NCBI GenBank assembly: GCA_016748015.1
Contig: JAAOMT010000070.1
Coordinates: forward strand, 248,001-312,000
Direction: 5' to 3'
DNA length: 64,000 bases
DNA from: Geosiphon pyriformis uo1
Taxonomy: Eukaryota > Fungi > Glomeromycota
This document shows, in pieces, positions 1-58,963 of this stretch. Each line of letters opens with the position of its first letter. Positions within the stretch are counted from its first letter, which is position 1. The notes under the pieces were generated by a model. That model did not search any database. It had not been told where the DNA came from and saw only the letters and a list, made by a program, of their open reading frames with translations. Made by a program: the position numbers and the translations under genes.

Positions 1-3000
1 TCTCAATCCAACATTGATTGTAGAAATCAGATACTGCCAATGCCACCTCCAACACATATGCATCAATAGCTGTTTGACTGTTGAGGTATACAATCAAGAA
101 ACAAGAAGATGGCACACATTCCAGAGACAAAGTGACAGCCTGCAATTCAGCCATAGTAAAAAAGGCAAAGCCATGCACTCCTACATTAATGCTCATGTCT
201 AATGCCAGAAAATATGCCACAGTATCACTAACCACATCATCAGGCCCAGTATTCCTCAATGAACCATCTGAATAAACTTCAAACAAGCCAGACCAAATTT
301 TATGTAAACTATCTTGCACCTTGGCAAACTCATTAGAATTCAGAATGTTCAAACCATCAGCCTGAAGAGACACAGACAGAACCAATGGTGAAAAGCTATT
401 ACTGTACAGAAACCTTGATGTAACATCAAACCAGTAGGGAACAGAGCCTTTGAAATCCAATCTTTTCCACCAATGGAAGGTTTTCCAATCCATAACACAG
501 CCCTTTTTATCAAAGAGCTTATCACTAAAAGCAATTTTAAAACATTTCAAAGACTAAACAAAACTAAGATATAAAGTCTTCTCAAGAATAGAAAACATAA
601 GAAAAACACCAGAACTATGAAAAGCATTAGGCAACTCATTTGCCAATAACAGCTTATTAGCTAAAAAAATCCTAACCACTTTAGCTAAAAAATTGTTTAC
701 AGGACTAAAAAGCAACTTAACTGAGAACTGCAAGGGATTTAGAGGAGCCCACTCCAAAACCTGCAGATCCAAGAATCTATGATGAAACAACCAACCAAGG
801 ATGCCAGAAGCATTGGAGAATGAGACCACAGCAGTTAATTTATTCTCTGATTGCACTTGCTCAAAGGACTTCAGACTATAGAGCAAAAAATGGTGTAAAG
901 CCTCATTAGGGAAATTTCAGGACAAGTGTGTTTTAGACTTGAGGCCCTTTTTAATCATGACATTCCACTTGTTGTACATACTTGATAAGACAAAACTAAA
1001 TTGAGTTTTATAACTAACAATAGGCTGCAAAACAGCTAACATCAAATAGGAAAACTGCTTGTCTATAATAGTCTTTCTAAGCACCACATTTACAAAGAAA
1101 TAAACATCAGCATAAGCCCTAACCAAATTCAGCTTGAAAAGTCTCTCAGTTGACAAAAAAATTCCCAGATATTTGTAAGTCTTGCCCTTTCCAGCCATGG
1201 AAATAGGTTGGCCATTAATACTTAAAGCAGCAAACTTAACACCTTGATTGATTGGAATGATCACTGTCTTCTCATTATTGATGGAAATGTCATTGATCGA
1301 AAAGAATTCACTGGCAATGTTCAGAGCATATTGCATAGAAGCTTAACAATCCTGACCCAAATTGTGTTATTCACAAATGCACCAGCTGCAAAAAATGAAG
1401 ATAAACCACTACTATTCTCAACTCTGCCAGTTTTTGCCACAAATTTAGTATCAATCTAATAACTGCACAAATGCTTATGTCTCTTAACTTTACACAAGAG
1501 AGGATCATAAAAGATTCTCTAAAGAAGGGGGGAGAAAACTTTATCCTGGTCCAATCTATCATGCACTCTATAGCCTTTTGAAAGGCCAAAATCTGTCATA
1601 ACTCTATTGATCCTATCTGTGTGTATGCTACCAAAAAATTTAATAAACCTATTGCATATCTTGATCCTATTTAAACTAGCCTCCAAGTAATGTCAACCAA
1701 CCGAGTCATATGCTTTGTGCATATCTTGCAAGATTAGCCAAAGTTCCCAACTCTTTTCCAATGTGTCTTCTACCACTGAACCAACTGCAAACACAGGAAA
1801 TTGAGTAGACATACTCTTCAAAACCAAAAAATTATCATCTTTAAAAACACCAAATTTATTGCATGCAGACGAAATCCTGTTGGAAATAACTTTGGAAAGA
1901 ATCTTTCTGGTGGTTTCAATTAAAGCAATAGGTTAAGTATTTATAAGAACTTCATTCCAGTCATAAGGTTTTGGAATCATTGAAACCCAAGCCTTTTTCC
2001 ACAAAACAGAAACACCTCTAACCACTAAACATATATTCAATAGTTCCAAAAGGCACTCCAACATTTCCTTACCACAATGTTTTCACAGCTTATTAGGAAT
2101 GCCAGACAAACTAGTGGCTTTATCATCAGACAGATTATTAACAACCAAAAGCAGCTTATTCATATTGATTGAACACATCACACTGAAGAAAGCATCATTT
2201 TTCATGTAATTTAATGACACATATTGGTGGGCTCAAAGATTAGGCATCACTGAGAGCACATTCTGCTTTTTCATCCAACTTTCCATTATTCTATTAATAC
2301 TGAGTTTGATTTTTTCTGGCTCTAAAACCAATTCATTGTCCACCACTAAGTAATTCAGGACTACTTTGCAAAAGGGACAATTCAAGATGCTTCTAATTAT
2401 GCCACCTTTATCAAAACAAAATTTTTCTATCTGCTTTTCTATCATCTTCCTAATAGATGCCTCCTCAGCCAATTTTGATTCAAACATCTTGGATTTTTGA
2501 TATTCTTTCTTAACCAAAGATAAATACTTAAGAACATTCATAGACCTCCTACTATTTTGAACTATTTCCATCACCACGATAGCTTTGTCAGCATCTAAAG
2601 ATGACCACTTCTCAATGAAACAATTATAACCAAGAATATTACCTGTGCTCAAACATTTAACTACTTTAGCAATTAACAGTTCCAATCCCAAAAACTTAGA
2701 TAAATATTTGTTCTTTGAACACTGAAACTTACTGAACCAATGTTTTGCAAAAATTTTATCAGCTGCACCAACCACCACTTTTTCCAAAACTGCTCATATA
2801 GTATCTACATTACCCTAAATTTTGGCATCAGAGAACATGGTCTTTATTACTGAAAGTTTGACAAAAAAGTATTCCTTAAATTTCAACCACTTAGCATCAT
2901 CTGCATTTTTGATCTTGAACTTCCAACAATCTTTATTAGTCTGTTTGTGCAAGCTATTCAAACAAACATCTAATAGCCCACTTAAGCCAACTAAGACCAA

Positions 3001-3679
3001 TACAGCATTGTAGTCAGTGTTAAAAAAACTAGAAACAAAGCAGACCTGATGACCAGTAACAGCAGACAACAAGGTTTTACTGACAAAAATATAATCAATA
3101 GTTTTCTCAGACCCTTGAAAGTTGTACCATGTGGAAGCCTTTACTAGACAATGACCTGCAAATGAATTGACTAAACTCAGATCTGAACAGAACTTGAAGC
3201 TTGCACTTCTCCCAGACCCATTCTCATTAAAGTCTCCACCCAAAACCACAAAAGTGCTGGAGTTGACAGCCTTTGCAATAAGAGAGTTCACAGCTAAAGC
3301 TTGACTAAATCTTGTTTTAGGAAAGACACCAGTATACAGTTCCAGAATTGTAACCAAAAGTTTGTCCTTAAATAAAAGCTGCACTAAAATAACTCAACCA
3401 GAGACCTCTTCAACTTTAGACACATGATGAGCAAGAGAATTGTTTATAATTACAGCCATCTTAGCACCAAAAAACCCCTTATCCAAACCAGTTATAAAAA
3501 CACACACTTTTAAACTTATTGGCTATCTATGATTTGACACTAGACCACAATTTAATTTCCATCATGAAAGACACCATACAACCAGAACTTACATGCCAAT
3601 AGACCACATCATTCTGCTTTGTAGAAACATTAATACCATGAATATTGCATGTAGCAAATTTCCAAACCAAATTATTCAT
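1..3679 (-). pseudogene. LINE-a ORF2 (APE endonuclease-RT-RNase H), disrupted
   Basis: Starts ATG AAT AAT TTG GTT TGG AAA at 3679. Many stops and frameshifts; motifs as above. Confidence 0.88.
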
Positions 3680-5324
3680 TAAGATAGAGGGGGAGCTAAT
3701 AAACTCAAATTAGAACACAAAGAGTTCAATCTTACTAAAACTAAACTGACTAAAATATCCAGAACCATTATTTTTAATTCCAGACCATCCATCTTGGTGG
3801 TAAAAACCTTCAAACTACTCAAACTGAATTCAGGAGCAATATTTTTGACCACCAGAGAGGAAATAGAAGAAGACACCATCACATTATCCACAGCCATGTC
3901 TGAATTCAAAGCTAAATTCAAGGGAACAGCAACAACAAGAGGGGAAACACAAGATATAGATAACATTGGCACCAATTCCACAAAACTTAGTTTCTTCAAA
4001 ATTACAGAAACTTGATCTGATAAAAGCTCTAAGAAGTACTCCAAAGAAGCCAAGCGATCAGTCAAACAAGAATCACCAAGAGAATTAGAAGCCATTAAAA
4101 AGAGTTTTACACCCAGAAATGAACCAGCACTAGATAAAACTAATAATACCCCATGAGAAGAAAAGCCACCTGCAATCTGAGCCCAAGTTTTTTCACCAAA
4201 AAACACTGGATAGACAATAGAAGTCTGTTTCCTTTTATAAATATCAACTAGACAAATCTGATCTTAAAAAGACACCACTCACTTATGACAAACTCCAGAA
4301 TTCTCACCAACTGAATACATATTAGAAATATGACCAAATTGTTTACACTTGGCACAACAAGCCAAAAAAAGACCAGTTCAGTACAAATTTACACTTTTAT
4401 AAATTAAAACAGAACCAATAACAGCCAATTTGGATGCTTCATTAGCAAAACACATTATTGCACATCTATCACATACATATGAGCTGGAATTATGGCCAAT
4501 GAAGCAAGTTTTTTTACCATATAATTCTATCAAACCAGAAAGATCATGTCCTATAGTTCTAACTGGAAGAGTATAAAGCAAAGCCCAATGCTGATCTCTG
4601 AATACTCATATTTGTTTATTACCAATGGCTTTTGCCACACAAACAGAATTTTTTTCCAAGAAAACAGACCATTTAGCTGTGACCAAATTAGCTATCTCAA
4701 ATGATTCATACTCCACCAAAGCTTTTTGTCACAAACCAATCAATTGTATCTTGATTGATACAATCTTCTTAAACTTAGAAAAAACAGATTTCACAGTTGA
4801 TTTGAGAAGATCAATTGAGATTTTCTTGACAATCACTTTCCAATCTGATTGGCTGTTAATCTTTCTAAGATTATCATTAACAAGAATTTTTTCACAGACT
4901 GCCAATTCCTTTGCCTTATTCAGACTAAATTCAGATGTAAATAACAACTTAATAATTTCAAAAATTTTTGAAGAAGTGGAAATCCCCCCAAAACCATCAA
5001 TTCAATAAAAAATTTTCTTGATTGCAATTAACTTATCACTATTTGTTTTTCCAGACACAGCAGACAATTCAACATCCAAAATGAACAATTTAATTGGTTC
5101 GAAGCTATGTTTCTTTAGGACATGTAATTTGGCAGACAGAAGCTAATTGGATCCAACAAATTTAGGTGCCAAGAGCACCAACTCAGTATTATTATTATTC
5201 ATATGTTTGAATAAAAACTGCTTTGGTGGGTTGCTCAGCACATACATCCACATGCAAGTTTTTTTCAGTATTGTTTTATCCATATTATCATTCTCACCTG
5301 ATTCTGCATAACTGGTTTCTTTGG
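3676..5324 (-). pseudogene. LINE-a ORF1 (RRM-like + CCHC knuckle + coiled coil), C-terminal part
   Basis: ORF fragments 3679-4206, 4378-4581, 4729-4947 and 5143-5337 match ORF1 of LINE-d (40933-42399). Confidence 0.85.
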
Positions 5325-6297
5325 TGTTACCAGACAAAATTAGAGATATTATTTAGCATAAAATTATCTTATAATTCCTATCATTAATTAACATCGTTTC
5401 AAATTATTACTTATTACATTAGCAAAAATGTCCAAAATTATTATTTAATTAATAACCCAAATTGTACACAACACAAATGTAACCTAATTGCGATGATCAA
5501 TCATGCAATACCCTGAACTATGTAACATTCAAAAGTTTGCCGAAATTTATAGAAATTCACCAAAATAATTGATAGTTTACCGAAATATCTAATAATTCAC
5601 AGAAATAACTTGTAGTTTGCTGAAATGTATCTTTAGTTTAGTGAAATTGTAGAAAATAGCAAAGTTCAAGTTCATAGAATAGTGTTATGACAAGTTGTAT
5701 AAAAGAAGAGCTTCTCTCTTTGAGAAATGTATCTTACTTTAGATTTAACAATTAGAATCATCCTTTACACACAAAAACGAAATAAATATCAAATAATTCG
5801 AAAAATCAAATCCTGAATTATTTCACTTTTGAAATTAACTAATTCCTACTAAACAGTTTGAAATTGATTAGCTACCAATTTCAGTAAACTGTTAGTGACT
5901 CCAGGCCTGGATAGAAAACATTTCCTTTGACAGAAATTCTATTTCTTTTACATTTCTTTTATTTTTCTTTTATTTTCTTATTACAATCATTAGGGTAGTC
6001 TACAGACAAGATTCCTGTAAAAGAGTTGACTTTCACAGCAAAGTAACTACACATTTTTAGTGAGCTTCCAGATGAGCAATTCCTGGGAAAGAGTTGACAT
6101 TTACTACAATGTAACTACATAAAAGCAACTGGCAAGGAATTGACCATTCCATTCATAAGTCCAGCAGCTCAAATTATAGGAGATAATTTGAGAATAAATT
6201 CAGTTATTGAAGGTTTAAACACTTCTCATAATCGTAAATTAACAGCATTACAATAAACATACAAGAGCTAAGAAGAGACCAAAAACCTCCAGTAACA
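5325..6297 (+). repeat. LTR-A 5' LTR (973 bp)
   Basis: TGTTACC...GTAACA; near-identical to 14207-15180. Internal AGTTYGCCGAAAT-like repeats at ~5531-5650 and a TATAAAA box at ~5698. Confidence 0.96.
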
Positions 6298-6299
6298 TT

Positions 6300-6315
6300 T
6301 GGTGCTCTTCCACGG
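6300..6315 (+). promoter_or_regulatory. Primer binding site (TGGTGCTCTTCCACGG)
   Basis: TGG begins 2 nt after the LTR-terminal CA. The same TT-TGGTGCTC follows the 5' LTRs at 16816 and 50723. Cognate tRNA not determined (it would end ...GAGCA-CCA). Confidence 0.85.
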
Positions 6316-6342
6316 AAACAACACAGCAAAAACAACTTCAAA

Positions 6343-8379
6343 GTGGCGACCACACCAGACACAACAACTCTAGAGTATTACCAATTAATTTACACCCACT
6401 GCAAGCAAAGATTCAACATTCCAGACGGAATTAAAATTGTCAAGAAATCAGTATACCAATACATTGAAAACTGCATCAACAATTATTTTTTTGGAAATTA
6501 CAATATCTCAGAAGTTAGAAGCAACCTTTACAATAATTTAGCATACTATTCACAGTTGGGAACTGAAGACCTTAACAGTGAAACACTTGCCACTTACTTT
6601 CATGAACTTAATTTTAACATTTTCAAATACTGTGAAGAAACATATCCAGTGCAGTCTCAATACACTATTGATTTTGAATTGGAAACAGAAACAAGCAACA
6701 AAGGCAAAAACAAATTGAAGCAATACTTAAAAACCACCCCAAATACTCCAACACTACCAAAAACAACTGCCAATTATTTACAAACACCTGAACAAGGAAC
6801 CAGTTCAAAACTTCCACTTACTATCACACCTTTTCCAGCTTCACTTGCACAAACACAAACACCTAATTTACCCTTGAATCAATTTGCAAGACCAGAAGAT
6901 TTTACATTACTCAGAAGTTCCACCAGACAACAAGAACTCCTTCAAACTAGCTCCAATCTCCTTGATTTTCTAGCTGAAAATCAAAGTGAACACTCTGAGA
7001 CAGCAGCAAACGAAGAAAACAACTCTGAAATAACTGAAGAAGAATCAATAGACAGTGAAAACGAAGAAGATGAAATGACAACATACATCACAAAAATCCC
7101 TAAATTCAATGGAGAAGATATTGAGACCAGTCCCCAAGAATGGCTTGACCAAGTTACTAAAGCTGGAGATGCAAATGGATGGAATTCTGCCAGAATGTTA
7201 AGAACAATTCCCTATTTTCTCAAAGGAACAGCAGGAGAATGGTTTAAAAACTTGGCTGCTCCATTCAATGATTAGAACGCTTTCAAAGCAGCCTTCCTTG
7301 AACAGTTTACCGACAATAATACCTCTATCACCCTTCATAATCATTTTCGAAATATCAAACAAGAACCCTCCAAATCTGTTATGACTTATATTGGGAAATT
7401 CAACAAACTTCTTAGACAAATTCACCAACTTGAAACAAACAATTATTATTTCAATGCTCAAATCTTGGATCAATTTATCACTGGTCTAAAAGATAAACTA
7501 ATTAAAAAGGTTTACCCACATGCACCAGAAGATTTAAACTCTGCCATACAGCATGCGAAAAGATATGAAATGGCCATGGAAGAGACCAATTGCACAAAAT
7601 TTGTAAATTTGGCAATTGGAAAAACCAGCTCAGCAGCTGAGGAAAAAATTAACCAACTTACAAAGAAGGTTGAAAACTATTTCACCAATCAACAACAACA
7701 GCAACCCCAAAGATATCAACCACTCCAAAGACAAAATCAAAATAATTTTGCACCACTTTCCAATAACCAGCCTCAAAATTGCCATTACTGTGGAATCTCT
7801 GGCCACTGGAAAAGAGATTGCAGAAAGCTACAATGAGACCAACAAAATAGGAGTAATTAACATTACCCTCCACCACAGCAATCTTATTATCAACCACTAC
7901 CATCAGCTTACTATCCACCAAAACTCCAATACCAAAATAACTATTATCAGCCTGCCCCACAGCCAATCCAACAGCAATACCAGCAACCGCTCACACAACA
8001 TTATCAAGTACCTGCTCGAAGACTGCTTACACAGAATCAATTCACACCACAAAATTGATACCAAGTAAACAACAATAGAATCAGTTCGAATAACCAATTG
8101 GTTCCTCAAAATTCTACTCAACCAAGACCCAACCACTACTACACTCAACCCAGTTATTTAACAATGCCAGAAGAACAGAATTTTCATCATACTGCACCCT
8201 CGGAAGGTAGAGCTGCAGCATAACAACAAAACCCTTCCTATACTCTTACCACAATCCCACCAGCCAGAATTGCTGAAAATGCCAACCTTTCAGATATATT
8301 TCCTTTTGAGTTCGAAGCAAATGAGTTATCATCCCTGCTTAGCAATGCAGCTGCCAATGAACAAAAAGCAATCACGGCT
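6343..8379 (+). pseudogene. gag: LTR-A gag (long N-terminal extension, capsid-like domain, CCHC knuckle, Q/P-rich tail)
   Basis: IPKFNGED...EWLDQV...LKGTAGEWF; CHYCGISGHWKRDC knuckle. In-frame stops only. Confidence 0.9.
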
Positions 8380-8760
8380 ATGTACACTGAAGCAGAAGTC
8401 AAAGGAAAGACAATTCGCTTGATCCTAGACAGTGGATCCACTGGAAGCATTATCACCTACCAGTTAATACAACAGTTGAAGAGAAATGTCGACCAACCAG
8501 CTCAAACAGTAATCGTCACTGTTGATGGCATGAAAAAGACCCCAGTAGGAGAAATTGACAATTTTCCATTCACTTTTGATGGAATCACCATTCCAGTCAA
8601 AGTTCTTGTAATGGATGCACCTCAGTACCAAGCTCTCGTTGGAAATGATTGGCTTCAAAAAGCCAATGCTAATCTGAATTGGGAAACACAAGAGTTAACA
8701 ATCTCCTACCAAGAACAACACGCCCAGGTATCTGCCACTTGTAATACATTCAACAAACAC
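8380..8760 (+). pseudogene. LTR-A aspartic protease domain
   Basis: LILDSGSTGSII and ALVGNDWL retropepsin motifs. Confidence 0.92.
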
Positions 8761-8929
8761 TCTGAAAAAGCCCCAGCTTTTGAATTCGAACCAGAAAAGG
8801 AAAAACCTCTCATTGAAACATTCATGGCTCTTGGATCAATGTTCAACTGGGCCGATGAAACAGAACAAGAACATTTTACCCCACACTCTGAACCCGAAAT
8901 CTCTAGATGGAATATCCCTTACTCAAAAC

Positions 8930-9575
8930 CTGAACTAAGAAAACAATGCCCTTATATTCCCCTTAAATGTAAGAACTGCCACAAGAAACTATTGTCAATG
9001 GGAGCCTGCATTTCACCTGAAGAAGAATATGAAAATCATACTTGTTATTACTGCAAGGCTTGCCACAGAGAACAATGGGGCCATCTAATAAAAAGGAGTG
9101 GAAAATGGGACAACACCCCTTGTTTGACTTGTGGAGATATGCTACTGGAAGAATGCAATTGGATTGATGTAGCCATAAGAGAAGGAGTCTGTGATCAGAC
9201 CTGCCAATATGCTTTATCAATTTCAGAAAAAGTAAAAAGAGGAACATCCTTTAATGCAGCATACAACAGTGCTCTCAACAAACTTTATCACTACCTCCAT
9301 GATGCTGAGATGATTTTCGACCTAGCAATGGCATTAATTAATAGAGCTACCAAAGAAGATGTTCACCAAATGAAGGAAGCAGAATACATTGAATACACCA
9401 TGAAATTAGCTGGATTTGATTACGAAGACAAAGTAGAAGTCTACCACCAAATTGCAAGTCATACCTACCCAACTCAAGAAGCTCAAATTCAATGATTAGA
9501 GCAAATGAACATTAGGCTATGTGAAAAATGCATTATGCCTTGCAATGAACAGTGGTGTCCTGAATGCTATGCTCT
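8930..9575 (+). other. Cysteine-rich (multi-CxxC) module within pol, function unknown
   Basis: CKNC, CYYCKAC, CLTC, CDQTC, CEKCIMPC, CPEC. A homologous block lies in LTR-C at ~53760-54390. Confidence 0.75.
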
Positions 9576-9689
9576 TAGTATTTTCTTGCCCAGTGAAAAT
9601 GATGAAAACAAAATTGAATTTGGAGAACTTAAAGCAATGGAAGAAATTGAAACAATATCTATCTACCTTATCAAAAATCAGCCTGCCTT

Positions 9690-10122
9690 ACAACTTAAAT
9701 ACTTCAACAACAATGGACAAGGAATAAAACCCGAAAAAGCACATAAAATTGATGCTAAATATGACCTAAAATATCCAGGCAAGGATACTCTTGTTCTCAA
9801 ACCCAAATCTCTCACAAAAATCAATCTTAAAATTGCACTCGAAATCCTACCAGGAGCAATGGTTCAAATTATCTTCCAGTCCTCTCTGGCAAGCAAAGGA
9901 ATCAATGTCAAAGGAGGAATAATTGATGCTGGATATACTGGAGACATTACAGTGATGCTTCAAAATGAAACTGACAAACCATTCAAGATCGAACATGCTG
10001 AAAAAATTGTCCAAGCTATTTATCTACTCTTAATCAACATTTCAGGTTTGCAACTAGTCAATCAAAGAGAACAATTAGGAAAAAGTGATAGAGGAACCCA
10101 AAGTTTTGGTTCAACTGGACGA
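9690..10122 (+). pseudogene. LTR-A dUTPase domain
   Basis: All five trimeric dUTPase motifs, some mutated: DAKYDL, QSSLASKG, GIIDAGYTGDI, IVQAI, RGTQSFGSTG. Confidence 0.92.
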
Positions 10123-10549
10123 TTCACAGTTCCAGTTAACATAACTTTTAACACACAGAACAAATCCCACCAGATTCTCAGACTTCTACAACCGATTACC
10201 ATCTCACCCTTTGGAGAACATCCAGAAATCTACACCTGCCCAAAGCCAACAACCACACAACAAAATTTTGAGTTCAATGAACAAGTCTGCTTGGAACATA
10301 ATATTTTGATCCCAAACATTTATATTCCAGAAGGAACAAAGAAAATACAAGTTACTTTTTACAACCCCAATAATTACCCCATAATTTTATTAAATAATTT
10401 AGAAATTGGAGTTATTTACAGTAATATATTTCAACAAGAATTACCCCAAACAGTTCCCAATTTCTCTGAAATTATTGGACATTCACTACCAAAAATCAAC
10501 CCAAACCCCAGCTCCGAAAACTACCATGTTGTCATGGAAAAACTATCTC

Positions 10550-11961
10550 AAATCAACATGGGACAACTTGAACCACAACAACAGACCCAACTCAAAAAGC
10601 TAATTGCAGAATTTGCCGATATCTTCGCTGAAAACAACAATGACTTAGGAAAAACCAATTTGGTCCAACACCAAATTTATACAGAAGATGCCAAACCAAG
10701 AAGACAACAAGCATATCGAGTTGCTCCAGAAAGCCACCAATTCATCCGAGAAAAAGTACAATGAATGCTTAACAATGGGCTCATTCAACCCTCCATGAGT
10801 CCTTGGACTTCATCTGTAGTGCTAGTTAAAAAAAAAAATGGAAAGATCCGATTTTGTGTTGATTATTGACAACTCAACAGTATTACAATTAGAGATGCCT
10901 ACCCCCTTCCCTGGATTGATAACATGTTAGATGCCCTTGGAAAATCCAAATACTTTTCAACACTAGATTTAGAAAGTGATTACTGGCAAGTTGCTATGAA
11001 TCCCAAAGATCGCCCCAAAACAGCATTTACCACCCAAGACGGAAATTATGAGTTCAATGTAATGCCTTTTGGATTATGTAATGCACCAGCAACATTTCAG
11101 AGATTAATGGATGTTGTGTACCAAGGACTTCTTTGGAAATCAGTAGTTGTTTATCTTGATGATACTGATGTTTATTTTCTATCATTCGAATTACACTTAA
11201 AACACCTGCAAGAAGTTTTTCAATGATTATGAAAAGCAGGACTAAAACTCAATATCAAAAAATGCTATTTTGAAAAAACAAGCCTGGCCTTCCTTGGTCA
11301 TATTGTTAGTAAAGATGGAATTAAACCAGATCCTGGAAAAATCAGCGTTGTCAAAAACTTCAAAACTCTTCGAAACACTACAGAACTAAGAGAATTCATA
11401 GGATTAGCATCCTACTATTGGAAGTTTATCAAAGGATTTTCGGAAATTGCAAAACCCTTCAACCAGCTTACCACCAAAAACGTTGAATACAAATGGACTA
11501 CCGAACACCAAAAAGCTTTTGAAATTCTCAAGGAAAAACTGACAACAGCTCCAATTCTCATCTACCCGGATTTCAGCAACCAATTTCGACTAGCTACAGA
11601 TGCTTCATATACTGCCTTTGGTGTTATCTTATCACAACTAGACAACAATGGAAATGAGTGAATAATTGCTTATGCTAGCAAAACATTAAAACCAGCTGAA
11701 AAAAACTATCCTGCCACAGAACTAGAAACAGCAGCCATAATTTGGGCCCTACACTACTTCAATCTTTATCTTAGGCCTAAAGAATTCAATATTATCACTG
11801 ATAATATTGGATTCAAATGGCTTCAGAACAAAAATACTCAGCTGAATGCAAAACAAACCCGATGGACAGAATTTCTAGCAAACTATTAATACATAGTATA
11901 TCACAAACCAGGAAAACTCTACACCAATATTGACTGTCTCTTCAGAATAAGACAAGATTAG
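10550..11961 (+). pseudogene. pol: LTR-A reverse transcriptase and RNase H
   Basis: RFCVDY*QLN, FSTLDL, MPFGLCNAPATFQR, VYLDD, FLGHIV, TDAS, ELET, HKPGK..N.DCL.R. Ends at TAG 11959-11961. Confidence 0.95.
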
Positions 11962-12012
11962 AAAAAACAAAAACCAACACTCAACTTAACCAACCAAAAG
12001 AGCTAACAAACA

Positions 12013-13398
12013 ATGAATTTGGAAAACTACAATGATCTCAAACAATATTTGGAAACATTAACAATCCCAACAGATTGGTCTCCAGATAAAAAACATTGAC
12101 TACAACAACAAGCCAAACAATATTTTCTACACAACAACATTATTTATTACCAAAATTTCAAAAACCCAGACAAACCACTTAGATTAATACAAAAACAGGA
12201 AAAAGAGACTATATTATACAACATGCACTCAGATCCTTCATCAGCCCACTTTGGAAAAGACAGCACCACCCAAAAAACACTAGAATACTACTTTTGGTCT
12301 CGAATAAGAAAAGACATTCACGAATATGTCGAATCTTGTGATAGTTGTCAAAGAAGAGGAGGAACTTGCCCTACAGAACTTTTAAACCCAATCAAAGTTG
12401 GACAGCCTTTTGACAAAGTTGGTATTGATTTAGTCGGACCACTACCTATCACAAACCAAGGAAACCGCTACATTGCAGTAGCCATAGACTATCTCACCAA
12501 ATGGCCTGAAGCCAGAGCCATTCAACGGGCAGATGCAAAATTAGTAGCAAACTTCATCTACGAAGACATCATTTATAGACATGAATGCCCAATAGAACTT
12601 TTATCTAATCAAGGAACACATTTCATGAACAATTTAATCCAGGAAATTTGTGGACAATTTAATGTCAAGAGACTATTATCTTCACCCTACCATCCACAAA
12701 CAAATAGACTGGTAGAACAGTTTAACAGAACATTGTGTGAATCATTAGCCAAAGTTTCAACCGATTTTGAGCAAGAATGGAATCTCTTTATTCCATCAGT
12801 GTTACTAGCATATAGGACACTAAAACAAGATACCACAAAACACACACCATTTGATTTAACTTATGGAAGGATGGCAATGTTACCAATTAGTTTCACAGTG
12901 GAAACATACCCAGCACAACCAATTGATGAAAACAATTTTCAAGAAATGCTTCAACAAAGAGCCTACACTCTGCTTAGCACATTGGAAGGAAAATGATGAA
13001 TAGCAGCCACCCATATTGAACACTCCCAAGCTCAACAAAAAGAATGGCATGATGACAAATTGTCTTCAGTCACCAATGAATTTAAAATTGGAAACAAAGT
13101 TCTCTTACACAGAACTAAAGCTGAAAAACAATGGAGTGGAAAATTTGAAAATAAATGGAATAGACCATTCTTTATCCATGAAGTTTTAGGCAACGGATCA
13201 TATAAGCTAAGACTTGATGACAAAATTCTAGCAAAAGTTGCACATGGAAATTGTTTGAAACACTATAATTCCAGAAACAATCTTGAACCATTAATTCCAC
13301 AAATTGGTACATATTCCCCTTTAATCAATCCCGAAGACATTCCCCAAAATTTAAAACTAATAGTTGTCATTGAACAGCCTCACAACTTGAACACTTAA
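12013..13398 (+). pseudogene. LTR-A integrase (HHCC, DDE core, GPF-type C-terminus, no chromodomain)
   Basis: MHSD..AHFG...CDSCQ; VGIDLVGPLP, SNQGTHF, PYHPQTNRLVEQFN; KWNRPF. Own ATG at 12013. Confidence 0.93.
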
Positions 13399-13518
13399 TT
13401 TAAATTTATTATTATAGTTATCTTCTTATAATTTAGAAACAATCTCACAAAAACAAAACAAAATAACATAAAAACTCATGCACCAAAAATAATTTTCTTT
13501 TATTTCAAATCGCTTATA

Positions 13519-14195
13519 ATGACTATTCCTCAAAACATTCAACAATTATTCCAAAAACTAATGTTAGCTTTAAAAACAATACCCGAATTATTCATTACTG
13601 TTACTGGAAACCACATTAATTATACCCAAACAGAAGTAGTTACAAATTTAGCTCCAAATTCACGAAAATATTACCCATATAAGAAGAACACAAGAAGTTA
13701 TACTGGAATTTACCTGCCAGAACTTTTAAAACTTACTTTAAGAGAAAATCTAATGTTCACTCTGATTAATATTCCACCAAATACTACAATTCAACAAAGA
13801 CTTCAACTGTGTCTCAATGAGGAAAACACTGAATATCCTCCAATCTATAGATATTTTCACATTGGAAAAACACTCTACAAACGGAAACTGGAACTTACAA
13901 CAGCAAATCTTGCAAAAGAAGCTATTCAGAAACAACTCCACAATGAATTCAAGACAACAGCTGGATCAACAAACAGTTGCTACAGGCTCAGAACTGCTCT
14001 TAGACTTTATGACCTATTTCACACCTGTGAAAACATACTACAAAACCCAATTTTTCAACCTTTGAAGATTTAATACATTGGAAAGCTCACAGAACTGAAA
14101 TTTCAACAATTTTCAGACCAAATTTCTTCAATAATTTTGGATTATTATCTGGAAATAACAAACAGTACTTGGACTTCAATGGAGCTCAGTCTTAA
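13519..14195 (+). pseudogene. LTR-A ORF3, unknown function
   Basis: 184 aa open, then one TAA at 14071; continues to the PPT (the frame would stop at 14238 inside the LTR). Motifs are shared with ORF3 of LTR-C and LTR-F. Confidence 0.8.
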
Positions 14196-14203
14196 GGAGG
14201 AGG
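14194..14203 (+). promoter_or_regulatory. Polypurine tract AAGGAGGAGG
   Basis: Purine run 3 nt upstream of the 3' LTR. Confidence 0.85.
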
Positions 14204-14206
14204 TTA

Positions 14207-15180
14207 TGTTACCAGATGAAATTAGAGATATTATTTAGCATAAAATTATCTTATAATTCCTATCATTAATTAGCATCGTTTCAAATTATTACTTATTACA
14301 TTAGCAAAAATGTCTGAAATTATCATTTAATTAATAACCCAAATTGTACACAACACAAATGTAACCTAATTGTGATGATCAATCATGCAATACCCTGAAC
14401 TATGTAACATTCAAAAGTTTGCCGAAATTTATAGAAATTCACCGAAATAATTGATAGTTCACCGAAATATCTAATAGTTTGCAGAAATAACTTGTAGTTT
14501 GCCGAAATGTATCTTTAGTTCAGTAAAATTGTAGAAAATAACAAAGTTCAAATTCATAGAATAGTGTTATAACAAGTTGTATAAAAGAAGAGCTTCTCTC
14601 TTTGAGAAAATGTATCTTATTTTAGATTTAACAATTAGAATCATCCTTTACACACAAAAACGAAATAAATATCAAATAATTCGAAAAATCAAATCCTAAA
14701 TTATTTCACTTTTGAAATTAACTAATTTCTACTAAACAGTTTGAAATTGATTAGCTATCAATTTCAGTAAACTGTTAGTGACTCCAGGCCTGGATAGAAA
14801 ACGTTTCCCTTGACAGAAATTCTATTTCTTTTACATTTCTTTTATTTTTCTTTTATTTTCTTATTACAATCATTAGGGTAGCCTACAGACAAGATTCCTG
14901 TAGAAGAGTTGACTTTTACAGCAAAGTAACTACACATTTTTAATGAGCTTCCAGATGAGCAATTCCTGGGAAAGAGTTGACGTTTACTACAACGTAATTA
15001 CATTAAAGCAACTGGCAAGGAATTGGCCATTCCACTCATAAGCCCAGCAGTTCAAATTATAGGAGATAATTTGAGAATAAATTCAGTTATTGGAGGTTCA
15101 AACACTTCCCATAATCGTAAATTAACAGCATTACAAAAAACATACAAGAGCTAAGAAGAGACCAAAAACCTCTGATAACA
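14207..15180 (+). repeat. LTR-A 3' LTR (974 bp)
   Basis: Direct repeat of 5325-6297. Confidence 0.96.
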
Positions 15181-15605
15181 TTGGCAACTATGTTCTCCAT
15201 ATTTTTGACATCTGAGAAACTGCTCACACTGCTAGAAACACTGCCAACTTTGCTTTCTCAGAACACCACAGGCTTAATACTGACATTACCAATATCTACC
15301 AAGCTCAGAGGGCCAGCAGATGAATTGACTATATTACTGGCTACAGGCATCTTTGGCTTCTTAAATGACAGACCATGAGAATACACACTATTCACACAAG
15401 CTTTTTTTTCCTACTAGACTGGGTCTTCAATCCAGTCAAACCAGCACCAGAACTACCAGCAAAAACGCTTACTGGATCTATAGAAACAAAAAAAGAAAAG
15501 TTGAAAGAAATAATTAGAAAAAAAACAAGAAAAAAAAAAGACTAATTAAACTTTGATAAAATTTTGCTCTTATTGTGGTTAGAGGATTGACAAAAGAAAA
15601 AAAAT
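15181..15605 (-). mobile_element. LINE-a 5' part (ORF1 N-terminus and 5' UTR)
   Basis: Removing LTR-A and one TTGG restores a sequence colinear with LINE-d around 42570-42610. The shared 5'-terminal motif is at 15567-15600. Confidence 0.9.
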
Positions 15606-15927: not shown

Positions 15928-18900
15928 TATTACTTATAGAAAAAAAATACAAAAAAATAATAAGAAAAACAGATAGAAAAAATAGACCAATAAGAAAATA
16001 ATATTTAGCACATGAGCATATTGTCAAAAATTACAGGCACATTGCTTAGCAATGTAAGCATTGCTTGAAAAATTATAGCATATTGCTTATAAATGTGCAG
16101 AATCTTGTATAACATAAATTATATATATATAGCAAAAGTATTAAAAGCAAAAAAAGCAATTCCAGGAGAATTCAATAAAGTTTTATTAATTTAGAACAAT
16201 CTCTTTTCTTCTTTATTTATTAACCCTCATTTCAAGGATAGTGCTATTAACTGAAATGGAATTATATAAATAAAATATCTCTTTAATTTTTCAAATCTAT
16301 GTTATTATTATTTGTTTGAGAATTTAATCATTCTTCCATTTATCAACACTTCATGTTGATAAAATCTAACACTTAACCACACTAGAACAATAGCTCTTGA
16401 TCATAGCTATTAATGGAATACTATTTTCTTTTATTTTCTTTTATTTTATTTTATTTTATTTTTTTGTATTTACTAATTGATTAAAAGAATTAAAGTGCTA
16501 AATTATTGATGTCAAGAATAGCCTGGTAAAAAACCCAAAAATAAGGGTGAAATTACATATATATTAACAGATAGCTTACCAGAAGGGCACAACTGCCAGA
16601 ATAAATCCAACCACTAAGCTGAAAAAAAAATTGGGCAGAATTACGATTCCAAAAAACTATTACAATCACCATTAAATTTCTGTTCATTATACAAAAAACT
16701 CCACAACAAAACTTTCAGATTACAAACAATCTACTAATATCACCAACATTATCAATTGAGCACCAAGTTATGGATTTGTTATTTGATTTAAAATTCCAAA
16801 TAACCACTTATAACATTTGGTGCTCCCTATAAAATATAATCTAACAGAGAACCAGTATCAACAACAACTATGCAGGAAAGTGGCAGACCAAGAAAAAACA
16901 AGGGAAAATCACTTAGAATTTGTGAAATTCTTATTTTACTATTATCTTTAATAAACTCATTAAACTTAAAACTCTGATTATTTAAGACCTGATTATTAAA
17001 AACCCCAAACATTCGAAAACTACTATTGATAAATTCATTAAAACTTGTTAAATTAAAACTTCATTTATTTAAAACCCAATTATTAAAACCCCAAACATTC
17101 AAAACTTACCCTTGATAAATTTGTTAAAAATTTGTTAAATTAAAACTCTGATTATTCAAGATTTGATCATTAAAACCCCAAACATTCAAAAATTACTGTT
17201 AATAAATTCATTAAAACTTATTAAATTAAAACTCCGTTTATTTAAAACCTGATAGTTAAAACCCCAATTATTTGAAACTTACCTTTGATAAACTTGTTAA
17301 AAACTTGTTAAAACTCTGATTATTTAAGACTCAATCATTTAAAAACTCAAATATTTGAAACCTGATAATTCCAATTCCACTATCATACAAAAAAACTTAT
17401 CATCAATAAAACTTGTTAAACCTCTAACAATTCAAACTCCAGGAATTATTCAAAAACCCAAACATTTAAAGTCTAATAAATTTCAAACCCCATGAAACTT
17501 ACTTCTAATAGCCCAATAAAACCTAATTCTCACAGTACCAATAAATTAGCAAAACTTATCTGACAGTCCTGAGTTAGAATATTGGGACATAGTCACAATT
17601 GACTCCCATGTATTATATATTCAAAAAAGAGCCAATTAGTAAGAACAAATGAGAATTTGAATCAAAACTTAATCCTGATTCAAACTCTGTTAATGACAGC
17701 AACAATTTAACCTCCGTTAATAACAACAATTATTCAAACTCCACCAACAACAATTCAAATTCCACTTCAAATACTGAACAATATATCACACTTCTAGATC
17801 TTACAATAAAGTGGGAATTAACTTAATTCAGTAATAATAATGAGGGCATTATATCTGAACATATATATAATACAGATGCAAGATTTGAACTTGGATATTC
17901 TGAACAGACTATTATAGTTAAAAATTCCAGTTACATATAAAATTAGATTTAAAAATAGCAATAAAAATTACAGTAACAATATTGATACAAAAGAAAAATT
18001 TAGAAAATTTTGCAGAAGCTCAATATTAAAAGAGGGAATAATATTACTTATAGAAAAAGAATACAAAAAAATAGTAGGAAAAACAAATAGAGAAAATAGA
18101 CCAATAAGAGAATAGTATTTAGCATGTAAGCACATTGCTCAACAATAAGCATATTGTCAGAAATTACAGATATATTGCTTAACAATATATAAATATTGCT
18201 TAGCAATATATAAATATTGCTTGAGAAATCATGGCACATTGCTTATGAATATGCAGAATCTCATATAACATAAATTATATATATATAGCAAGAGTATTAA
18301 AAACAGAAAAAGCAATTCCAGGAGAATTTAATAAAGTTTTATTAATTTAGAACAATCTCCTTTCTTCTCTATTTATTAACTTTTATTTCAAGAATAGTTG
18401 CTATTAACCAAAATAGAATTATATAAATAAAATATCTCTTCAATTTTTCAAATCTATGTTATTATTATTTGTTTAAAAATCTAATTACTCTTTCATTTAT
18501 CAACACTTCATGTTAATAAAATTCAACACTTAACTATACTAAAACAATAGCTCTTAATCATGGCTATTAATGAGATACTATTTTTTTTTATTTTTTTTTA
18601 TTTTTTTTTTTGTGTTTACTAATTGATTAAAAGAATTAAAGCACTGAATTATTGATGTCAAGGATAGCCTGGTAAAAGACCCAGAAATAAGAGTGAAATT
18701 ACATATATATTAATAAATAGCTTACCAAAAAAGCACAACTGCTAGAATAAATTCAGCCACCAAGCTGAGAAAAAAATTGGGCAGAATTACAATTCCAGAA
18801 AACTACTATAATCACCACTAAATCTCTATCCATTATACAAAGAACTCCACAACAAAACCTTCAGATTACAAACAATCTACCAATATCACCAATGTTATTA

Positions 18901-18961
18901 ATTGAGCACCAAATTATGGGTTTGTTATTTGATTTGAAACCCCAAATAATCACTTGTAACA
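15928..18961 (+). mobile_element. LTR-B: non-autonomous, internally deleted LTR element (3.0 kb)
   Basis: LTRs 15928-16815 and 18042-18961, PBS TGGTGCTCCC at 16818, PPT AAAAGAGGGAA at 18028-18038, TSD TTAT/CTAT (one transition). The 1.2 kb interior holds the gag start, a tandem array and the dUTPase N-half. Confidence 0.9.
16945..17370 (+). repeat. Tandem array of ~5 units of 86-87 bp
   Basis: Anchor CCCCAAACATTC or a variant at 17003, 17089, 17176 and 17262. Confidence 0.85.
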
Positions 18962-19544: not shown

Positions 19545-22500
19545 TTTTTTATTTTATTTTATTTAAAGAATAAGATCCATATATTACTTAGTACAATATA
19601 TTATATAAGTAATTTAAATTAGGTGTAAATCATGTTTTTTCTATATATAAACAGTCATTTAGGCTGACCAAAACAATGCTATGCACTTATATAATTCAAA
19701 ACTGAGTCTTTAATGTCTAAAAAAACAAACAAGACTTATATAAGCCAAAATTAATACCAAATGCCTTAATAATATCAAACAATCTAATTTTATTAGCAGA
19801 AAATACTGTAAACTGTCCAAAAACAGAAACAAAAACTGAATTATCATGAAGAATTAGCCCATTTTTTTCATAAAAACATGATGCTTAGCACAAACCAACC
19901 AAATTTCTTTCTTAAAAGCAAGACAAAAATTACACACAAAATTCATGATTTTCAGATTCACAACTTTGAAATCACTAAAAACAAAAACAGTTTTCTGACA
20001 CCAATCATTAAAGACAAAGCTCTTGCAAAAAACTGTATACACTACAGCATTAGAGATACAAAAGAACATTAGTTGAGACATATATAAAGAGGAACAAAAA
20101 AGACCAAAAATCACTTTTCAAGTATCTGTATAAGCATTTAACAAATAATAACAAACAGAATTGTCAATTATACAAAAAAAAATATGGTTTGAGATCTTAA
20201 CATTATCACAATACAAATATGTCATATTAAAGTAGTACTTGTCATATAGGCATTTTTTAATAGCAATAAGTAATTAATAATATAAAGTTTTTATAAAATA
20301 AGTGTAAATATTAACAATAAGTCTACTAATAAAATCAGCAGCCATATGCAAATCAGAATGCTACACCAAAGATAAACTAAACCAATTAATATTCGAGAAC
20401 AAACAATTAGCCAGAACCTTAGAATCAGAACTGATTTACCAGCATACATGATAAATAAATCAAAAAATCTTACAAACAAAATATATAAAATTACCAGAAA
20501 CAATACTACTATCAGCCTTAATATAATGTTTTCTTAATTGGAAAAAAAGACACCAATTAGAAAAAAATACAATGTTAGTAAATGTATTAGCACATTTATT
20601 ATCTAAAACATCTGAGTAACTATTCACTTTGTGCCAATTAATATTCAAATTCTTGTCATGAATAACATCTATAATGTGCTATCATTCAATTTAACACCAA
20701 TTCTAAAAATCTGGATACATCAAACTTAACTCAAATTTACATATATCCAAAGCCACTTGACTGTTTGTAAATAATTAAATTGAGCCATAAAGAAAATACA
20801 CTTAAGAGTCAATACAATAGTCTGCAATTTTACTAATATAAAAAACATCAAACCAAAAATCTCAATACTTAGACCCAAATTCACATCTTCAAAAAAAACC
20901 ACAACATCAGCCTTCATGTGAATTGTTTCCAAGTTTTTTAGAGACTCATTTGTATAAACAGACATGCTACCAATATTAATATCTAATAAACAACTACAAA
21001 CCAACTCAAATTCACTCAATTTAAGAATATTAAAAAGTCTAACATTGCCCAAAAAAGGAGAGCAGATAAAAAAAGAGACCATATTACTAAAAAAGTTAAT
21101 AAAAGGCTTAAACCATTCAGAAATAAAGCCACAAGAGTCTAATTTTTTCCATTGCTTAAAAATTTACTAATTAAAAATAAATTCATTTTGACAACAAAGT
21201 TGGTCCATAAAAGCAATATTATATTATCAAAGTAAAGAGAAAAACTTAAAGAACTTAGATTCATTAAGAACAATTAACATAAAAGTTCCACTCCCAAAAT
21301 AAAAAGAATTGTTTATAAAACTACCTAAGGACAAATTGTACTTAAGAAAAATACAAATCACATTTGCCAAAAAATTATTAAAAGGACTGATTCTAATATA
21401 AGTTAAAGAGCACAAAAGATGAATTAGACTCTAATACAGAATTTGCAAATCATGAGATTTGTGAGAAAACAAACAATTCAAAATTCTAATAAAGTTTGCA
21501 AAATTTACAAGAAAGGCCAATTTGCTCTTAATTTAGACCTGCTTAAAAGTTTTCAGACCATACAAAGAAAGGTAATAAAGTGTATTATTAGAAAAATTAA
21601 AAAGCAAACCAGATTTTAACTTTAAGCTTTTGTGAATCAAAGCATTTTACTTATTATATACACTAATAAGAACAAAGCTGAATTGCATTCTGTAGCTAAC
21701 AATAGATAAAAAACAGCTAACACCAAATACAAAAACTGTTTATTAGAGATAATTTTTTTCAGAACAAGATTGGCAAAAAACCAGATATTTGTATGTGCTT
21801 TAGCCAAACTAGATTTTGATAAATTCTTAGTTGATAGAAAGATACTCAGGTAACAATGAAATTCTTTTTTTTTAATAATAGAAATAAATAAGTCACTAAT
21901 TAACAAAGAAAAGCTTCCAACTCTGCAATTGATAGAAATGATCACTATCTTGTCATTTTTAATAAAAATGTTATTAATCTGAAAGAATTCATTTGTAATA
22001 TTAAGAATATATTGGGTAGTATTTTGATTGCAACCAATCCAGATAGTGTTATTAACAAAAGCACTAATAGTGAGAAAAGATGTCAATTCAGTCCAAGATT
22101 TTACACAATCAGTTTTGGCAACAAAATAAAAATTCAATTTATATTCACACACATTTTTCTGTCTTTTGATTTCACACAAAAGAAGATTATAAAATATACA
22201 CCAAAAAAAAGACAAGAACACTTTCTCCTAATCCAAACTATCATGTATTTGATATTTACCTGTTAATTCAAAATCAGTCATCACTTTGTTAACACAATTA
22301 TTGTAAATATTACCAAAAAATCAAATAAACCTGTTATATATCTTTATTTTAACCAAGTTTTTTTCAAGATGCTCCCAACTAACAGAATTGTAAGCTTTTT
22401 ACATGTTCTGCAAAACCAGCCAGAGTTCATGGTTTTTTTTCAAAGTGTTCTCAATTATTGAACCAACAGCAAAAATAGGAGACTATATTATTGTACCCTT

Positions 22501-23650
22501 CAAAACTGAAAAATTATCTCTGCAGAAGATGTCAAAAACACTATATAACAAAAAAATTCTGTTAAAAAGAATTTTACATACAGTTTCAATTAAAGCAATA
22601 GAGTGAGTATTCATAAAAACTTCATCTTACTTATATAATTTGGAAATCATTGAAACCTAAGCCTTTCTCCAAGATTTGAACATTGATTCACAAGATAAAT
22701 AAGAGTTTAAAAGCATCAAGAGTATATTCAAAACTGATTTGTCACAATGTTTCCAAAACTTATTTGAGATATCAGAAAAACCAACAGCTTTGTTATCAAG
22801 TAGATCAAAAATCACATTGAATATTTCATCAAAAATAACCAGACACATTACATTAAAAAAAGCATCATTAAAAACATATTTTAAAGACTGATATTGTCAA
22901 GACTATTTATTAGAAATATTAATAATCACTTTATATTTCTTAGTCCAACTCTTCATAATTTTGTCTACATTGGCTTTAACCAAATCAGATTCTAAGATCA
23001 GTTTATTATTAATAACTAAATAATCTAAAACCACTTTGCAAAATAAATGTTTCAATACATTTCTAATAGTATAACTCTTGTTTACTTCAAAATTTTCTAT
23101 CCTTTTATCAATCATCTTAAAAAAATAACTCAACACATATGTTCAAGTATGAATTTTTCTAGATGTGGTATTGTTTATATTCTTATTTATTAAAGCATTC
23201 AATTTGGCATAATTGGTTTTCTTAGTAACTATATCTTTCATGTTTTCAACATCCAACAGACTACTGATACTGCTTGCAACACTACTAACTTTGTTTCTCC
23301 AAAATTTTGAAGGTTTAACACTAAAGCCACCAATATTTAACATGCTTATAGCATTAACAGATGACTTGACTACACTATTAGTAGCAGCAGATTTCTTTGG
23401 CTTCTTGTATAATGCACTGCAAGATTGAAAACCAACCAAATGCTTATTCTTAATGCTAAACTAGGTCTTTAATCTAGCTGAGCCAATACCAAAACCACCA
23501 GCAAAAAAACTCATCAATTCTATAGCAACAAATAAAGATATATTGGAAGAAATAACTAAAATAGATAATAGAGAAAAAAAAGAGGAAAAATTATTTTTTC
23601 AGCTACTCTGTGCTCTCATTGTAACTAGAGGATCAATAAAAGAAAGAGTT
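19545..23650 (-). mobile_element. LINE-b: degenerate LINE with a large internal deletion
   Basis: RT (SAFVNNTIW), RNase H (VYTNES, WHKV) and C-terminal fragments; ORF1 N-terminus 23143-23520 joined directly to the ORF2 linker at ~23120; 5' motif at 23612-23646; 3' UTR and (TAAA)-like tail at 19545-19690. Confidence 0.88.
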
Positions 23651-24039
23651 TTTGATATTTTTTTGTTTAACAATAAAAAAATTTTTTTAAGTAAATATGA
23701 ATAATAAAAATATATTATGAATATAAATTGTAAAAAGATTATACTTAATAAAATAAAATTGTTATTTTATGTGTGTAAATTAAAATTTTTAATTCAACAA
23801 AATTTTCAAATTTTAATAACAACTTTTATTTAATAATAATAAAGATTGGTGATGGATTAATAAAAGTGTTTATTTAGATTATTGTTATTATTAAAACCTA
23901 CCATTTATTAGTAACTAAAATAAAAGGATACTAAATTAAAATATATTTCTTCAAATTTACATTTTTTTATATTTTATAATTGCCTTAATTATAACTAATA
24001 TATATATATATATTACAGTTCTAGTTTTGAAGCTTTTAG

Positions 24040-35614: not shown

Positions 35615-36092
35615 ACTTTGTATTAAGGAATTAGTATGTTGAGACTGTTTTAATCTTTAAAGAAAAAAAAAACTGTTTTGGCTTTGGTTGAATATATTTA
35701 GTTTGTAGTAGAATTACATTATACTAAAGTATAATTGATTAGATCCAAACATAGGGTGAATATAGAAAAGATTGATTTGGTCAAGAATAATAATATAATT
35801 GTGAGCTTATCTTATTGTGTAGTGTCTATGTTGTTAAATGAGATGGTTTGTATGCTTGGTGTTATAAAATTCTTTGCTGTTAGTTTTGGTAGATGCAAAA
35901 TATGTCTTTTTTTTTCTGATTTAGGTAATAATGTTTTTATTAGTATAGAAATGTAATGTTGTTTTAACTGGTCCAAGTAATTAGCCACATGTAGCAAATA
36001 TGTGAACTGCATTTAGTTTGAACCTCTTAGTTTAATTTTATATACTAGATAGCAATTGGGCTTTATTTGTAAAATCTTGTGATAAAAAAAAA
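35615..36092 (+). mobile_element. LINE 3' fragment (ORF2 C-terminus, 3' UTR, short A tail), LINE-e type
   Basis: ...LGVIKFFAVSFGRC...ISIEM*; the UTR aligns with 59847-59985. Confidence 0.85.
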
Positions 36093-50722: not shown

Positions 50723-50739
50723 TTTGGTGCTCTCTGTAA

Positions 50740-58949: not shown

Positions 58950-58963
58950 AAAAGAGGAAATAA

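Follow-up and report, generated by a model that had tools for sequence, protein, structure and literature searches.

A Ty3/Gypsy retrotransposon family of Geosiphon pyriformis with a stand-alone integrase gene, a third open reading frame and a Cys-rich plus dUTPase insert

The stretch of DNA analysed here, referred to as the window, comprises 64,000 nucleotides (nt) of Geosiphon pyriformis uo1 (contig JAAOMT010000070.1, positions 248,001 to 312,000, forward strand). It contains element A, a decayed but full-length Ty3/Gypsy retrotransposon with long terminal repeats (LTRs), in which the integrase (IN) is encoded by a gene of its own behind the stop codon that ends RNase H (RH). A third open reading frame (ORF3) follows IN, and a Cys-rich module and a dUTPase lie between the protease (PR) and the reverse transcriptase (RT). 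The features of element A are as follows (window coordinates).

5325-15180, plus strand: element A, decayed Ty3/Gypsy LTR retrotransposon, full-length
5321-5324, no strand: left target-site duplication (TSD) TTGG; right copy at 15181-15184; the empty paralogous site in a long interspersed nuclear element (LINE) near 42580 has a single copy
5325-6297, plus strand: 5' LTR with TG...CA ends
6272-6310, plus strand: predicted hairpin of the U5 end and the primer-binding site (PBS), z -2.5, equal stability in 3 of 200 shuffles
6300-6307, plus strand: PBS TGGTGCTC, starting with TGG, within the U5 hairpin
6298-11961, plus strand: ORF1, with N-terminal extension, capsid (CA), nucleocapsid (NC) zinc knuckle, PR, Cys-rich module, dUTPase, RT and RH; ends at TAG 11959-11961
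7075-7833, plus strand: Gag capsid and CCHC knuckle; first Met 7075, knuckle 7780; Retrotrans_gag E 2e-10, zf-CCHC E 9e-5
8353-8739, plus strand: aspartyl protease, LDSG at 8425, Pfam E 9e-11
8896-9660, plus strand: Cys/His-rich module outside known families, conserved CxxC pairs
9730-10125, plus strand: dUTPase domain, Pfam E 7e-17, motifs damaged in this copy
10543-11958, plus strand: RT and RH, YLDD at 11152, TDAS at 11596
11962-12012, plus strand: spacer of 51 nt from RH stop to IN start, free of ATG
12013-13398, plus strand: ORF2, stand-alone integrase with its own Met, YPYY-like motif, H2C2, DDE core and GPY/F-like C-terminus; 3 decay stops
13519-14235, plus strand: ORF3, running across the polypurine tract (PPT) into the 3' LTR; copy-specific stop at 14071
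14194-14203, plus strand: PPT
14207-15180, plus strand: 3' LTR

Pfam matches in element A follow the order Retrotrans_gag, zf-CCHC, aspartyl protease, dUTPase, RVT_1, RT_RNaseH, Integrase_H2C2, rve. The frame of ORF1 (6298-11958) has 12 stops in 1,887 codons versus 84 and 142 in the other two frames, and the IN stretch has 3 stops in its coding frame versus 30 and 39 in the others. Upstream of the first Met, the gag frame (6298-7074) has about 260 open codons, starting at the PBS. This pre-Met part is present in 81 of 103 Geosiphon gene models, and the metagenome loci L005 and L007 (loci are numbered in this way throughout) likewise open directly after the PBS. Pairing between the U5 end and the PBS was also predicted in element C (50666-50731, z -2.6) and in a short element (16758-16825, z -5.1); in relatives it is weak in L004 and L017 and absent from L005, L007 and L016. 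Such a hairpin could control primer access. Tf1-type self-priming, an idea prompted by the hairpin, was rejected on account of that absence and of the pairing arm lying at the LTR end. In L014 (1280-2171), a pair of PBS-like sites of the ACAAA-TGGTG type lie about 80 nt apart after the LTR.

The same architecture occurs in a second full-length element, element C. The 3' end of a third copy is also present.

49852-59842, plus strand: element C, an older copy from a diverged subfamily, full-length, with its modules in the order of element A; TSD ACAT
56876-56878, 56909 and from 58344, plus strand: element C RH stop, IN ATG and ORF3, respectively
61831-64000, minus strand: third copy, represented by its 3' end (C-terminus of IN, ORF3, LTR)

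Elements A and C share 32-53% amino-acid identity over CA, PR, the Cys-rich module, dUTPase, RT, RH and IN, seven modules in identical order, and ORF3 of element C is linked to the others via the intermediate proteins P0370 (E 3e-8) and P0372 (E 3e-19). The LTRs of element C are 86% identical, i.e., it is older than element A, whose LTR pair is 95.6% identical (929 positions match and 43 differ, 41 of the differences being transitions); the corresponding Kimura two-parameter divergences are 0.16 and 0.046. Element C is frameshifted, and a single frame is kept only in element A. Each element was inserted into a LINE copy. Because the uninterrupted paralogous LINE sites (about 42560-42610 and 35930-35975) carry one copy of the 4-mer, the TSDs are fixed at 4 bp, TTGG in A and ACAT in C. 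A first-pass annotation of this DNA, made from the sequence alone, had proposed this module order, two divergent full-length elements with accompanying fragments, a single frame for the modules of element A, and 4-bp TSDs, and all four proposals are borne out.

The central feature is the RH-IN junction. We aligned 164 contigs from one DNA run over this junction, with a variant threshold of 8%, and found zero variants at or above that threshold in the TAG at 11959. By comparison, a second stop at 12004 is peculiar to the element A copy, and all of the contig sequence aligned there reads C. Gaps of 3-9 nt occur in the junction stretch in 3 of the 8 longest contigs listed, one of these gaps being 4 nt, and RH ends at the same residue in A and C. 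A search for integrase relatives among proteins of 253-807 aa found 916, of which the best 120 were examined: 117 start with Met, 100 have exactly the N-terminal length of element A, and the named organisms among them are Rhizophagus irregularis and Entrophospora. Because a length range of 253-807 aa is unable to show fused RH-IN forms, loci were checked at the DNA level. From 578 metagenome loci the best 80 were taken, and the integrase start was measurable in 58. Among the top 22 by score (a 405-bit cut-off, set afterwards), 2 end at a contig edge and the remaining 20 have a Met with no more than 23 open codons upstream. Both RH and IN are visible in ten loci; a stop intervenes in all ten, and the frame changes in eight of them; the spacers range from overlap, as in L022, where the integrase ATG overlaps the RH stop, to 727 nt. 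In more distant metagenome loci, IN is mostly fused to RH. The fixed TAG and the conserved Met start show that the stand-alone integrase is real, as the first-pass annotation had it.

Could the integrase still be part of Pol, reached by readthrough of the stop, or could the stop be a mere decay mutation? On the one hand, IN is in frame with RH in A, C, L009 and L012, and element A has 12 other in-frame decay stops. On the other hand, the TAG, unlike the decay stop next to it, is fixed, the Met holds a single conserved position, and spacers extend from overlap to hundreds of nucleotides. Readthrough is unlikely because the frame changes between RH and IN in most relatives, and we regard either version of this explanation as very improbable.

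The layout extends beyond Geosiphon. In an RT-RH tree of 28 rows, a single branch sets the 9 separate-IN rows apart from all others (support 80/86; recovered in 82% of bootstrap trees; 86 in a quick tree). The IN tree, with 87 rows, places A and C in a starred 15-row set (SH 96) together with proteins of R. irregularis and of an Entrophospora cluster; both trees were built from metagenome loci and a few R. irregularis proteins. Two points weigh against this grouping: the RT-RH branch is not starred, and in the IN tree the separate-IN label needs two changes, L035 lying outside the set. Overall, a separate IN, often with ORF3 after it, marks a wider group, found in Glomeromycota and metagenomes, that includes elements of Rhizophagus, Entrophospora and metagenome contigs. 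Many stand-alone "integrase core domain" gene models of Rhizophagus probably represent such genes.

The Cys-rich module and the dUTPase have a narrower distribution. All 103 relatives of the Cys-rich module are Geosiphon pyriformis gene models; they were chosen by their Cys-rich match, and many end after that module. Within them, the Cys-rich module comes next after PR in 102 adjacencies, and dUTPase next after the Cys-rich module in 52. The linker from PR to RT measures 601 codons in A and 661 in C versus 63-152 in four of four relatives from the wider group, and the dUTPase and Cys-rich profiles gave zero matches in metagenome loci outside the window. The insert of about 500 residues has thus far been seen only in Geosiphon. 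A consistent module order holds for the Geosiphon models, and the relatives in the wider group lack this insert. Likewise, the proposal of a distinct, possibly undescribed lineage retains the consistent module order and the absence of a description in the literature searched, but the modules are not one package.

Cysteines of the Cys-rich module are strongly kept (e.g., in 57 of 57, 50 of 52, 69 of 71 and 68 of 68 sequences), and searches of Pfam and the Protein Data Bank (PDB) with it matched nothing. Judging from its conserved CxxC pairs, the module is probably zinc-binding. In the dUTPase, each of motifs I-V represents the majority state when 43 gene models are compared. The match to trimeric dUTPase TIGR00576 has an E of 2.5e-25, yet it lies under the family cut-off; the closest PDB dUTPase entries shift with the copy queried, and phage matches do not exceed 40% identity. 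Two counts weigh against a working dUTPase as a regular part of the family: it is reached in 56 of the 103 Cys-rich-selected gene models (protein models only, many of which end early), and exactly intact motifs, all five together, occur in none of the 43, the best keeping four. Because no model keeps all five exactly, we only infer dUTPase activity. A second decayed dUTPase in the stretch after the dUTPase was considered and rejected (probability 0.07%).

Other inserts and extensions were observed among the metagenome loci. In L007 (3497-4438), L016 (4945-6702) and L004 (2-541), the polyprotein continues beyond RH for 300-590 acidic residues that include a Cys/His cluster and match nothing in Pfam; kinship of the Cys-rich module to the Cys/His tail in L004 and L007 was rejected (hhalign 2%, no match to the hidden Markov model). 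The unrelated Gypsy elements L033 (2000-8096) and L040 (1813-7780) have a chromodomain and a weak dUTPase match between PR and RT; their IN is followed by an ORF that resembles a GDSL lipase (Pfam E 8e-11 in L033; L040 alike by eye).

ORF3 is 239 aa long in many Geosiphon gene models. Of the best 120 relatives (167 matches in all), 119 are Geosiphon pyriformis gene models and the remaining one is the window's own protein. A profile search over 1.84 billion representatives found 34 ORF3 proteins, including two from ENA and JGI, and one of these two connects the ORF3s of A, of C and of the minus-strand fragment. Eleven metagenome loci have an ORF of 119-283 aa after IN, and these ORFs are homologous to one another (leave-one-out scores of 41-134 bits versus no more than 9 for shuffled sequences). 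Their profile matches a protein of R. irregularis at E 1e-21 and the ORF3s of Geosiphon at 6e-7 at best, and hhalign relates the metagenome and Geosiphon ORF3s with a probability of 73% (E 3e-5). Three findings weigh against ORF3 as a uniform component of the group: the Geosiphon ORF3s are distant from the others (12-18% identity), the ORF3 profile gave zero matches in L001, L020 and L023, and L014 and L017 have no ORF3 at all. Because IN leads directly to the PPT and LTR start in the last two, ORF3 is accessory.

What kind of protein ORF3 encodes bears on the claim that this is a retrovirus-like lineage, perhaps infectious, with ORF3 as an env-like gene. ORF3 does occupy the env position, and dUTPase is common in retroviruses. 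Even so, the maximum hydropathy over 19 residues is only 0.3-1.3 in 16 of 16 ORF3s, and no membrane-like or hydrophobic segment was found in the 16 checked. An L004 homolog, modelled from a 20-sequence alignment, gave an eight-helix domain (pLDDT 89.9, pTM 0.83), and ORF3 is confidently predicted to be a compact, soluble, all-helical domain. Moreover, RT-RH is Ty3-like: against solved structures, the best matches are to Ty3 (E 4e-95 and 1e-94), the next has 1e-64, and the others 1e-36 and weaker, with retroviral entries at 1e-36 and 3e-30. The retrovirus-like label is accordingly dropped, and an infectious lineage with an env-like ORF3 seems to us most unlikely.

The predicted structure of the L004 homolog matched solved folds weakly (best Z 4.9, rmsd 3.2, 79 aligned residues), and Foldseek with this model returned nothing at E 0.001, which does not in itself prove a new fold. 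A model from Geosiphon ORF3s only was poor (pLDDT 47; best structural Z 6.2). Sequence searches with ORF3 gave no Pfam family, no real NCBIfam match and no PDB sequence match; in Atlas, its matches were all below 0.9 or absent. Scans of viral contigs found nothing relevant.

How do these elements compare with known systems? They resemble Ty3/Gypsy (Metaviridae, type member Ty3; PMC7879559) in having LTRs, PBS, PPT, CA and NC, and the order PR-RT-RH-IN, and their RT-RH is nearer to that of Ty3 than to the enzymes of retroviruses or caulimoviruses. In the ICTV Metaviridae profile (PMC7879559), however, IN counts among the pol domains, and a third gene, where present, is env with SU (surface) and TM (transmembrane) domains, whereas here IN has its own gene and ORF3 is predicted to be soluble. 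Because IN is not a pol domain, we file the family as non-canonical Ty3/Gypsy and not as a canonical metavirus. A 3' ORF with SU and TM domains, as in errantiviruses and other env-bearing elements, is lacking, as are the retroviral-type RT and env of Retroviridae. By its motifs, the integrase is of the YPYY type (Y/F in 102 of 108 sequences at position 12, then P in 95, F/Y in 111 and Y/F in 113 of 118), and its GPY/F motif is well kept among the 120 relatives (G 117, P 117, Y/F 118). Pfam found no chromodomain in the IN C-terminal ORF of element A, and the same scan detects one in L033 and L040.

The first-pass annotation had treated dUTPase as a rarity in Metaviridae. The available part of PMC2864245 describes dUTPase in pol of the fungal Gypsy elements PosPlaTy3-3, -4 and -5 of Postia, of Phanerochaete elements and of Tuber Tmt1, with repeated independent capture, and in PosPlaTy3-5 it lies between PR and RT, as here; dUTPase in itself is thus not the unusual part. 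Those elements are treated together with chromodomain elements, unlike element A, which has no chromodomain (a comparison by description), and that part of the paper mentions neither a Cys-rich module nor a separate IN. The bdelloid rotifer elements Juno, Vesta and TelKA (PMC5408684) also combine dUTPase between PR and RT with a 3' ORF3; however, IN there lies in pol, and the ORF3s are of env-like, GDSL or DEDDy type, whereas the Geosiphon ORF3 belongs to no Pfam family. The YPYY integrases of Athila/Tat, Cer1, Gypsy-1_RO, DGLT-A and Ginger1, as described in the accessible portion of PMC2836005, share the N-terminal Y/F-P-Y/F-Y/F, H2C2, DDE and GPY/F. Ginger1 also has a free-standing integrase-like gene and a 4-bp TSD; by motifs and description, our elements differ in that the free IN sits inside an LTR element beside RT-RH, without terminal inverted repeats, OTU or Ulp1. 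We found no description of the layout with separate IN, ORF3, Cys-rich module and dUTPase in the literature, in a search that left Repbase, GyDB and the Geosiphon genome paper outside its scope. The available parts of PMC3248453, PMC2774666, PMC10508981 and 10.1101/2021.03.30.436303 do not mention it; what PMC10508981 places in a separate ORF is an extra RNase H, not an integrase. What stands out is the separate integrase, accompanied by a conserved ORF3 whose structure is unmatched; the dUTPase is a familiar capture.

How, then, are IN and ORF3 expressed? We lean somewhat toward a three-ORF Ty3/Gypsy family in which free IN and ORF3 are made by translational restart after the upstream stop, with a dUTPase that likely limits uracil in cDNA. 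One genomic RNA would be made from the 5' LTR. ORF1 would yield a single Gag-Pol-like chain without a frameshift, which PR would cut into CA, NC, the Cys-rich module, dUTPase and RT-RH, and IN and ORF3 would come from this RNA too, by translation across short spacers that mostly lack ATG. Because it is not tied to Gag, IN would need its own route into the particle or to cDNA, and may enter the particle or join cDNA through RNA or protein contacts of its own. A tRNA would prime at the TGG-starting PBS; the captured dUTPase would keep uracil out of cDNA, the role assumed for viral dUTPases; and IN would make a 4-base staggered cut. Historically, the separate-IN layout would be the older trait, common to Rhizophagus and Entrophospora elements, and the Cys-rich plus dUTPase insert would have come later, between PR and RT, in the lineage that expanded in Geosiphon.

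Ten short RH-IN spacers contain 1 ATG versus 7.5 expected (P 0.003), and ten IN-ORF3 spacers contain 1 versus 7.9 (P 0.003); two long RH-IN spacers, of L001 (365 nt) and L016 (727 nt), with 19 ATGs, were set aside from the short set. Start-stop overlaps at RH-IN in L022 and at IN-ORF3 in L006 fit coupling. A purine stands at -3 in 14 of 17 starts (one of the 17 being a wrong Met), which fits real initiation and is neutral between restart and a separate message. Several observations weigh against restart. The control word GTA is equally depleted in the short RH-IN spacers (0 versus 7.5 expected), the ATG depletion is gone once the spacers of L001 and L016 are added (20 versus 26.1, P 0.11), and ORF3 starts were assigned by eye, which biases the IN-ORF3 count. 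In eukaryotes, restart after a very long ORF over 30-160 nt is inefficient.

Alternatively, the same three-ORF element could express IN and ORF3 from subgenomic mRNAs that arise by splicing or internal initiation, much as foamy-virus Pol is made from a subgenomic mRNA. ATG-poor leaders are expected under this route too, and the two long, ATG-rich RH-IN spacers as well as T-rich stretches ending in TAG in the pre-ORF3 spacer of A, likewise in L007 and L025, favour it. So does precedent, in that LTR elements typically express their ORF3s through splicing (PMC5408684). Against it, YAG is sparse in the short RH-IN spacers (9 versus 15.3 expected, P 0.04), and 5 of the 10, which are drawn from loci and the window, have none (L005, L009, L012, L020 and L021), nor by inspection do those of A and C, although an acceptor inside RH is conceivable; the start-stop overlaps, too, fit coupling. 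We regard subgenomic mRNAs as a possible route, less probable than restart, and our preference for restart over separate mRNAs is weak.

A broader proposal would make these elements an undescribed Ty3/Gypsy clade of arbuscular-mycorrhizal-type fungi, with free IN from a polycistronic RNA and ORF3 as a new helical fold serving as the element's own restart or packaging factor, to which the Geosiphon branch added a zinc-binding module and dUTPase. The caulimovirus transactivator offers an analogy for such a factor. A role of ORF3 as a helper for IN packaging or for translational restart is speculative, and in its entirety the proposal strikes us as unlikely.

LTR retroelements normally bring integrase into the particle fused to Gag-Pol. 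A widespread group with a separate integrase gene must achieve IN expression and packaging in another way, and Rhizophagus, for which expression of Gypsy elements is reported (10.1101/2021.03.30.436303), offers a system for testing this. The group also provides a natural case for integrase gene movement between LTR elements and Ginger-like DNA transposons, and it supplies a conserved small protein, ORF3, that has no structural match. For annotation, well over 100 "hypothetical protein" gene models of Geosiphon are pieces of the element A/C family.

Decay of the two full-length elements is dominated by transitions, which make up nearly all LTR differences in A and 114 of 119 in C and affect every cytosine context, beyond CpG (in A: CA 16, CT 12, CC 7, CG 6). 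The CpG observed/expected ratio is 0.25 in A and 0.06 in C. This looks like a process resembling repeat-induced point mutation (RIP) or like broad deamination; signatures of RIP were undetected in G. margarita and Mucoromycotina, as far as the accessible text of 10.1101/2021.03.30.436303 goes. LTR sequence makes up 41.2% of the Geosiphon genome (PMC11952901).

The window contains two further remnants of the family.

15928-18961, plus strand: short, internally deleted C-type element with two LTRs, an interior of about 1.2 kb and a remnant of the dUTPase start; TSD TTAT/CTAT
61494-61781: dUTPase fragment from another copy, adjoining the third copy

The short element, which is non-autonomous, has an internal tandem repeat of 86-87 nt. 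Decayed LINE copies with matches to RNA-recognition motif, endonuclease, RT and RNase H domains occupy 1-5324, 19546-23700, 27010-33336, 36100-42900 and 43600-49500, and a protein kinase gene fragment lies at 25244-25912 (PK_Tyr_Ser-Thr, E 1e-27).

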